DNA of 51,309 nucleotides from an uncultured Methanosarcinales archaeon (GCA_964637115.1 CAZWVL010000009.1:1-51309); one strand, 5' to 3'; numbered from the stretch's first letter, positions 27,256 through 27,501 are shown. Numbers and translations: made by a program. Notes: a model not told the origin generated them from the letters alone.

Positions 27256-27501
27256 GTCCCGTCCCAGTACCGTCCCAGTCCTAAGACGGTCCTGAGACCG
27301 TCCCAGTTCCACATATGATATAGTCGGAGTCCCAGTCCCAAGATAGTCCCAAAATAGTCTCAAAGCGTTCTTGGGAAAGTATTGGGACTGTCCTGAGACT
27401 ATCCTGAGACCGTCCCAGTCCCAGACGTTTATCGTCGATAAACCAGTCCTGGGACTGTCCTATTCCCATTCCCATTTTGGGACCGTCCTGAGACCGTCCC
27501 A
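27256..27501. repeat. Dense short-repeat (iteron-like) array
   Basis: Ten GTCCC and three GGGAC in about 250 bp; exact 16-mer TCCTGAGACCGTCCCA at 27290, 27402 and 27486. Confidence 0.9.

Follow-up and report, generated by a model that had tools for sequence, protein, structure and literature searches.

Directly in front of the gene for P1, a coiled-coil winged-helix protein, a dense cluster of short GTCCC-type boxes fills some 250 bp of the window, the whole 51,309-nt stretch of DNA that was analysed (contig C9 of a genome of 27 contigs and 1,272,532 bp). The locus raises the question of what such an array is for and which protein reads it. Archaeal chromosome segregation and organisation are, to our knowledge, largely unknown, and for DPANN archaea we know of nothing; a literature search found no paper tying Woesearchaeota to such repeats or proteins. 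The reading that we favour, and regard as rather probable taken whole, is that the array is a single-copy cis platform which P1 and P2 would bind cooperatively, with autoregulation of their operon and probably a role as a centromere or tether. A skew-based exclusion of a replication origin, covariation of box and reader at the level of the class and arrays inside open reading frames are new here.

Organisation of the array

An exact count gave 13 GTCCC/GGGAC cores in mixed orientation between 27256 and 27500, 10 on the plus and 3 on the minus strand, which is the number given by an earlier reading of the window made from its sequence alone (the sequence-only reading). The rest of the 51-kb window contains 28. 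With 0.14 cores expected per 250 bp, the Poisson probability of 13 is 1e-21. The relaxed core [GTA]TC[CT][CT][AG] finds 31 boxes in the array against 3.4 expected, the majority oriented toward the P1 gene and a minority inverted. The repeat unit is 11 nt long, GTCCYRRKAYN (e.g. GTCCCAGTACC, GTCCTGAGACC and GTCCCAAGATA), and the autocorrelation of the array sequence is highest at a lag of 11 (47% identity, against a baseline of 25%), with harmonics at 22 and 33.

The three copies of a 16-mer, TCCTGAGACCGTCCCA, start at 27290, 27402 and 27486, that is, at the intervals of 112 and 84 nt already reported, and no match with two or fewer mismatches was found elsewhere in the genome. From the end of the final copy to the P1 ATG at 27540 the distance is 38 nt, where about 40 nt had been claimed. 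Across the 1.27-Mb genome, clusters of at least four [GT]TCCCA boxes occur at the array only, and a genome-wide search for box clusters found no mini-arrays at other promoters that would make up a regulon. As the units abut at 5-11 nt, in both orientations and without unique spacers, a CRISPR array was rejected, in agreement with the sequence-only reading. Its view that the ORFs across the array are artefacts also held, since 11-nt indels among genus relatives break any frame; these length steps imply that helical phase is kept and coding is excluded. Nor is the array an artefact of assembly, because about 45 independent assemblies carry equivalents at the orthologous place.

Promoter-like elements lie at both ends (Table 1). 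On the right, the BRE/TATA element of P1 (AAAAGTTTTTAAATAA, 27504-27520) abuts the edge of the array; its TTTAAA core is invariant in the genus alignment, and ttttaaa or tttataa recurs in all loci. A P1-P2 promoter is predicted from the consensus at 27510, and with its TATA box only 30 nt upstream of the ATG the P1 mRNA would be leaderless. In the left boundary element TATTTTAA/TATATTAA is invariant in the genus alignment and is kept as ACTACTATTT(A/T)AAYC in family-level loci, and its reverse complement resembles the BRE/TATA of P1. Because its purine-rich BRE-like side faces the array, this TATA-like element (27241) probably fires leftward, away from the array. If so, the array would be an untranscribed spacer between two divergent promoters. 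The DNA directly left of the element cannot be aligned among genus members.

Table 1 Positions of the array, its flanking elements, the associated genes and related features (window coordinates unless a contig or locus is named)
Feature	Position or lineage	Strand	Description
Left boundary element	27236-27255	-	ACCTTGTATTTTAACCTTTC; TATA-like box at 27241-27248, purine-rich BRE-like side toward array
Block I	27256-27305	+	Six direct boxes, GTCCCG, GTCCCA, GTCCCA, GTCCTA, GTCCTG, GTCCCA; mostly 11-nt spacing
16-mer copy 1, in Block I	27290-27305	+	
Spacer	27307-27328		No boxes; AT-rich motif CACATATNATATAGTCG, kept in genus alignment
Block II	27329-27367	+	Direct boxes GTCCCA, GTCCCAAGATA, GTCCCAAAATA, GTCTCAAAGCG
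Block III	27368-27423		Inverted TTGGGA (27372) and TGGGAC (27383), then direct GTCCTGAGACT, ATCCTGAGACC, GTCCCA, GTCCCA
16-mer copy 2, in Block III	27402-27417		
Embedded palindrome	27427-27443		TTTATCGTCGATAAA; follows Block III; invariant in genus
Block IV	27446-27501		Inverted pair GTCCTGGGAC, then GTCCTA, TTCCCA, TTCCCA, TGGGAC (-), GTCCTGAGACC, GTCCCA
16-mer copy 3, in Block IV	27486-27501		
Predicted BRE/TATA of P1-P2 operon	27502-27520	+	ACCAAAAGTTTTTAAATAA; 30 nt before P1 ATG
P1	27540-28214	+	224 aa; coiled-coil N-terminus, C-terminal winged helix
P2	28279-28821	+	180 aa, GTG start most likely; coiled coil, then winged helix
P3	28778-29278	-	166 aa; winged helix and long C-terminal helix; convergent with P2
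TTATCG(T/A)CGATAA copies	27429-27441; 36680-36692; C18:2099; C5:78300; C2:72082; C4:59610		Contigs of this genome (G000)
HTH type K(S/T)T[IL]RGQxN	f77, f79, f88, f89, f75		Box AAACAG/CTGTTT, often as palindrome CTGTTTAAACAG; 4-15 copies near gene vs 0-4 in other types
HTH type VTVRRHxND	G184, G213		Box CGTTCA/TGAACG; 11 and 9 near gene, 0 in rest of locus
HTH type YPxK..VRS	f82		Box CGTCTACGAAC; 5-6 exact 11-nt repeats directly upstream of TATA box
HTH type YPxK..VRS and similar	G063, G066		Box [GC]TTAAC (GTTAAC / ACTTAACAAT); about 11-nt spacing
In-ORF arrays	L157:2127-2726 (G184); L165:2326-2904 (G213); L150:2227-2862 (G172); L158 (G232)		Boxes inside P1-like ORF
In-ORF tandem array	L152:3254-4129 (G194)		ATCAACAAT[GC] repeats in P2-like ORF
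DUF7121-matching protein	20870-21760	-	296 aa, coiled coil
14-mer TTTCAAGTGCCTAA	26959-26972; 30627-30640		Exact copies
Dispersed hairpin	26921-26951; 27162-27191; 29386-29415; 19850 (minus strand); C2:64264; C3:10631; C3:40599		CCATCGGAAAT-N4-5-ATTTCCGAGG, then T-run
GTCCAGTGTCCAGTG	29336-29350; C4:59590; C10:7041		

The P1, P2 and P3 proteins

The AlphaFold model of P1 (pLDDT 81.5) has a long N-terminal helix (residues 2-72) followed by helices at 78-88 and 92-114, a disordered linker (116-137) and a winged helix (169-217). Foldseek returned generic winged-helix matches only (the Hop2 winged helix, ArsR/SmtB, MarR and TubR). The recognition helix, SKSSFYR, is invariant across 24 aligned orthologues. 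P2 is the constant partner of P1 by synteny (alignment A3); with an hhalign probability of only 30%, the two are no more than candidate paralogues. P3 is the best conserved of the three proteins (mean column identity 68%, alignment A2) and is confined to part of the order. The best folds for its model (pLDDT 84.8) are small archaeal wHTH regulators, TFE-alpha and the Lrs14-type AbfR2.

Searches with P1-P3 against Pfam, NCBIfam, PHROGs and PDB sequences gave coiled-coil noise and weak generic HTH matches only, and profile searches found no AAA+, Rep or helicase-loader domain in them. A protein atlas groups P1 among 'hypothetical proteins' of Woesearchaeota/Nanobdellota. The neighbours of the module have housekeeping functions: L1, L10, UppS, an RsmE-type methyltransferase and PAC2. 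A mobile element was also considered and rejected, as the module is a core feature kept in synteny and a search of viral contigs found no relatives of it. On the uppS side lies a coiled-coil protein with a match to DUF7121 (Table 1), which is syntenic with the module across the family and in G040, a complete genome of another family.

Conservation within the order

A P1 orthologue was detected in 30 of the 41 close relatives searched; in a sample of 251 genomes from across the phylum, 143 have one. The gene order uppS, an unknown gene, rsmE, array, P1, P2, P3 (convergent) and PAC2 holds throughout the family and partly through the order. The densest TCCCA/TGGGA window adjoins the P1 orthologue in 20 + 21 loci from many families, and an array lies beside the P1 orthologue in about 45 related genomes, mostly upstream of it and in three downstream. 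Lag-11 periodicity is present in nearly all of these arrays. The sequence-only reading had tied the mixed-orientation boxes to the adjacent wHTH gene; repeat arrays were indeed found at every orthologous locus examined. In each case the array is inside P1/P2-family genes or no more than a few hundred bases away from them. It is real, genome-unique, helically phased and under selection.

Among nine genus members the mean identity of the array is 76%, with invariant GTCC cores (those of Block I included) and length differences that are 11-nt units; one such unit has been gained or lost in Block III (alignment columns 224-234). The box consensus within the order is AYA(G/T)TCCCA(G/A), in which the TCCCA core does not change and the preceding base is G, T or A according to lineage. 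Where the TCCCA core stays constant, so does the recognition helix of P1. An association of residues with the -1 base (G, T or A) within the order was uninformative, its leading columns being dispersed along the coiled coil and following the split between genera.

In G040, and also in G037 and G258, P1 is inverted and the array is found at its 3' end. The P1 and P2 promoters then have no boxes, and in the complete genome of G040 at least five GTCCCA per 300 bp occur at its array only. The array thus stays with the gene even where a role as promoter operator is impossible. Several genomes that retain the array do not have rsmE as a neighbour. Three genomes are unpublished: G010 and G023, which figure in some of the results on array loci, synteny, periodicity, box consensus and cdc6 distance, and G270, which figures in the phylum-wide survey only. 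They were excluded from alignments A1-A4, from the residue-by-box association, the RNA folding and the count of palindromes with P3, and from the box/HTH covariation, and no conclusion rests on them.

Boxes and probable readers in other orders

Elsewhere in the class, 20 genomes of other orders encode a P1-like protein of about 200-230 aa in which the N-terminus is kept and the C-terminal HTH is different. Its gene has a P2-like neighbour (E 1e-13 to 1e-20) at 19 of the 20 loci. TCCCA arrays are absent from all 20 loci; each HTH type comes with a box of its own (Table 1). The arrays in these orders have no more than 5-10 boxes, immediately before the TATA box, and in this resemble a normal autoregulatory operator. 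The sequence-only reading had proposed looking for co-evolution of repeat and recognition helix and, across orders, the box does change with the HTH type of the P1 family in at least five lineages. This covariation is the best evidence that the P1 family reads the boxes, although it is correlative and drawn from few lineages; as it follows phylogeny, linkage could yield part of it.

In four of these genomes (G184, G213, G172 and G232) the boxes, CGTTCATGAACG, ACACGTGT and AAACAG, are inside the P1-like ORF, in the segment for the disordered linker, with one 6-mer occurring there in each of the three frames. The coding sequence of the reader thus seems to contain the very array that the reader would bind. 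In G194 a 10-nt tandem repeat, ATCAACAAT[GC], is present in 6 + 11 copies in the linker-coding part of the P2-like ORF. The 10-11-nt period and the palindromic units within ORFs indicate selection on the DNA rather than on the peptide, though part of the repetition within ORFs may be no more than low-complexity linker sequence prone to slippage.

Proposed function

In the mechanism that we propose, some 30 short GTCC(C/T)-type boxes in four blocks would be displayed mostly one per helical turn (11 bp) and hence on one face of the DNA. P1, probably with P2, would bind them cooperatively through its C-terminal winged helix, and the long N-terminal coiled coils would project outward from the nucleoprotein filament so formed. 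A dimeric regulator would separately occupy the palindrome at 27429-27441. Since the array fills the gap between two predicted outward promoters, its occupancy should feed back on transcription of the operon. From these features we infer both the cooperative binding and a structural job, as a centromere-like handle or a chromosome tether. That P1 and/or P2 bind the array appears very likely from the sequence comparisons. For the complex to do something beyond autoregulation the case seems evenly balanced, and segregation or anchoring as that further role is put forward only tentatively. No second target is present in the genome, which is odd for an ordinary transcription factor.

In its most far-reaching form, which we think unlikely, this reading would make the array with P1/P2 the chromosomal 'kinetochore' of Woesearchaeota and related DPANN, a single point centromere. 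If it were true, a coiled-coil wHTH filament would couple a chromosome of about 1 Mb to the division or host-attachment apparatus without a dedicated NTPase encoded nearby, and box and reader would co-evolve, the box being tolerated even within the reader's coding sequence. ParA, MinD and AAA_31 have no match on the window, matches to CbiA and AAA_31 being found only on contigs C18, C1 and C4, and the syntenic neighbours of the array include no NTPase (ParA, ParM, TubZ or other). The anatomy of the array fits the centromere-like meaning that the sequence-only reading had also offered, but a segregation role would be one without a motor.

The module is compact and directly testable, consisting of a cis element of about 250 bp and two or three small proteins. 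It is present in one copy per genome, at one chromosomal place through the order and in altered form through a class of uncultured archaea of ultra-small size. Box and reader, paired differently in each lineage, offer a natural specificity series for winged-helix/HTH recognition, and the in-ORF arrays are an unusual overlap of constraint at the DNA and protein levels. Even if it were an autoregulatory switch only, the array would be a conserved non-coding element that is described in no database.

Alternative explanations

The sequence-only reading had offered initiator iterons as one meaning of such boxes. The array would then be a second oriC, not linked to Orc1, with iterons for a wHTH initiator such as WhiP at Sulfolobus oriC3. 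Dense repeats beside wHTH genes in a gene-poor block of about 4 kb, AT-rich tracts 2.8 kb from the array and T-tracts with weak 11-nt phasing in its distal flank are all compatible with this, but neither Orc1/Cdc6 nor Rep is encoded next to the array. Where the two share a contig (G147, G064, G190, G023, G018, G040 and G205), cdc6 is 184-360 kb from the array (224 kb in G023, an unpublished genome). In the present genome Cdc6_C matches are found only on contigs C4 and C11, and the sole full Orc1/Cdc6 gene is on C4, where it has a DUE-like stretch of 28% GC upstream. The array itself has 48% GC and contains no AT-rich unwinding element, the nearest strongly AT-rich stretch being 2.8 kb off, and its boxes do not match what we take to be the ORB and mini-ORB consensus. 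P1-P3 lack the AAA+ or helicase-loader domain of an initiator, and the arrays inside ORFs fit poorly with an unwinding site. In G040 (1,301,350 bp, joined from pieces L046-L111) the minimum of the detrended cumulative GC skew is at 760,920, only 4 kb from cdc6 (765,076), and the maximum is at 167,975, whereas the array at 437.3 kb sits on a monotonic slope with no inflection; the cumulative skew of the window does not turn at 27 kb either. On the position of cdc6 and the GC skew the origin was rejected as an explanation, and we consider it extremely unlikely.

A plainer alternative is that the array is an operator only, through which P1/P2 (and P3) control their own operon and the divergent rsmE-uppS, with no structural role. 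The array does abut the BRE/TATA of P1 and faces a second TATA-like element at its other end, the 5-8 boxes seen in other orders are directly upstream of the P1-like TATA box, and the folds of P1-P3 are typical of small archaeal regulators. However, about 30 boxes over 250 bp far exceed what an operator needs, and there is no second target genome-wide. The downstream array and box-free promoters of G040, the arrays within coding sequence in several lineages and the genomes that keep the array without rsmE are also hard to accommodate, so that we find this explanation distinctly unlikely. That the boxes are bound by some factor encoded elsewhere, for instance a protein of chromatin or of boundaries, seems very unlikely indeed. 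The entire uppS-rsmE-array-P1-P2-P3-PAC2 neighbourhood is syntenic, so co-inheritance alone could hold array and P1 together through shared ancestry of the neighbourhood, and the palindrome within the array is clearly part of a wider regulon; against this, the adjacency of array and P1/P2 outlasts loss of rsmE, inversion of P1 and movement of the array into an ORF, the box type shifts with the HTH type of P1 in at least five lineages, and the absence of boxes elsewhere in the genome leaves nothing for a general factor to bind. Transcription of the array into a structured or repeat-bearing RNA is scarcely credible. The inverted boxes would permit long imperfect hairpins, but RNAalifold gave the genus alignment a penalising covariation term (+0.51), with compensatory change in 3 of 56 pairs, and the predicted pairs are merely the invariant inverted boxes, which are conserved in both orientations. 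The flanking promoter-like elements are directed away from the array, and a structured RNA was rejected for want of covariation and of any Rfam match. The preferred reading remains a platform that P1 and P2 would bind.

Comparison with known systems

By analogy, the array seems to work like sites that are centromere and operator at once, namely R1 parC/ParR, tubC/TubR and the omega heptads. It falls outside these families, since a ribbon-helix-helix (RHH) adaptor and a linked NTPase are both lacking and homology to TubR is not demonstrable, and compared with plasmid partition sites it is about three times larger, chromosomal, core and of mixed orientation.

In the parC site of plasmid R1, 11-bp direct repeats form two sets, spaced at one repeat for each helical turn, and overlap the promoter of the binder's operon. 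The array likewise consists of 11-nt phased direct repeats that end directly at the BRE/TATA of P1, but it has about 30 boxes in mixed orientation and is chromosomal and core. ParR of R1 binds cooperatively to form a large complex and is also autoregulating (PMC9178275). It is a ribbon-helix-helix protein with the actin-like ParM encoded next to it, whereas the array genes encode coiled-coil winged helices and no NTPase is linked to them. As a type II system of adaptor and ATPase the module was found wanting on both counts, the models of P1 and P3 being winged helices, not RHH, and the neighbours including no ATPase.

TubR is a winged-helix protein that binds repeats of about 12 bp just upstream of its own gene and polymerises to a superhelical nucleoprotein filament (PMC9178275). 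In both the pBtoxis-type tubC/TubR system and the array, a winged-helix gene is directly beside a block of short repeats. TubZ, however, is absent among the neighbours of the array, no tubulin-like GTPase being found among the syntenic genes (L1, L10, UppS, RsmE and PAC2), and P1 has a coiled-coil N-terminus of 115 residues where TubR has none. TubR is at rank 31 in the Foldseek search with P1 (E 0.03, TM 0.49 on target), level with ArsR or MarR, and at sequence level P1 and TubR do not match. As the match is no better than those to ArsR/MarR, membership cannot be claimed.

The omega repressor of pSM19035 binds contiguous direct and inverted boxes cooperatively, and its sites are centromere and promoter operator at once. 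Short contiguous boxes in both orientations are common to this system and the array, but the omega units are of 7 bp, the binder is a ribbon-helix-helix protein with a ParA-type delta ATPase as partner and the system is plasmid-borne. With the chromosomal ParB-parS system the array shares a cis site in or beside the gene of its own binder (compare the arrays inside P1-like and P2-like ORFs). In contrast, the parS palindrome has 16 bp and a small number of copies scattered around oriC, and ParB (Spo0J) is a spreading and sliding HTH CTPase that acts with ParA and SMC, whereas the array is single, phased, 184-360 kb from cdc6 and without an NTPase domain. A ParABS or SegAB system would include a Walker-type ParA/SegA ATPase, and none is encoded with P1-P3 or on contig C9.

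RacA of Bacillus subtilis, a kinetochore-like anchor of the chromosome, is small and combines an HTH with a long coiled coil; from clustered ram sites it tethers the DNA to a landmark of the cell without a dedicated motor. An architecture of HTH plus coiled coil is what the tether reading assumes, but the MerR-type HTH of RacA is N-terminal and its 25 ram sites extend over about 600 kb near the origin, whereas the winged helix of P1 is C-terminal and all its sites would be within one 250-bp array.

The embedded palindrome and other sequence features

The palindrome TTATCG(T/A)CGATAA is present in six exact copies in the 1.27-Mb genome, several of them beside TATA boxes, where we estimate that about 0.04 copies of such a 13-mer would be expected. 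The copy on contig C2 fronts a gene for a 93-aa HTH_27 winged-helix protein (C2:72156-72437). The palindrome was found in 23 of 28 arrays with P3 at the locus against 2 of 16 without, one of the two being on a truncated contig, a count that overstates the link because the relatives are not independent. In other orders, where P3 is not nearby, the DNA upstream of P1-like genes is still enriched 18-fold in a related 7-mer, ATCGACG. This, and the copy that fronts an unrelated wHTH gene, speak against a firm assignment of the palindrome to P3; the candidate binders are accordingly P3, P2 or an unlinked wHTH protein. The palindrome looks like a separate operator of dimer type, a candidate for the control of a small regulon.

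Several other features were observed around the array. On the side of it distal to P1, the P1 strand has 38% T against 24% A (array flanks only, 44 loci). T-tracts there show weak 11-/22-nt phasing, for example at L026:10570-10760 in G040 and at 27040-27150 in the window, which is strongest in G040 and G085 and suggests intrinsically bent DNA. The cumulative AT and GC skews of G040 do not come back to zero, the strand as deposited having a net surplus of about 79,000 A relative to T, which implies a chromosome-wide asymmetry of composition on top of the replication signal. The two exact copies of TTTCAAGTGCCTAA flank the 3.7-kb gene-poor block; apart from these the genome has a single near match, with one mismatch, at C1:74980.

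Hairpins of CCATCGGAAAT at 26925 and 27164 were considered as ORB-like elements and rejected as copies of a dispersed hairpin-plus-T-run element, of which the genome has at least seven (contigs C2, C3 and C9). Being dispersed and not conserved in genus relatives, they are outside the module. The element looks like a REP- or terminator-like repeat with a superficial resemblance to mini-ORB. Finally, GTCCAGTGTCCAGTG occurs three times in the genome, and its copies on C4 and C10 share a near-identical context of 45 nt that starts with a TATA box, possibly a small RNA gene or a shared promoter; on C4 a TTATCG(T/A)CGATAA palindrome directly adjoins the copy.
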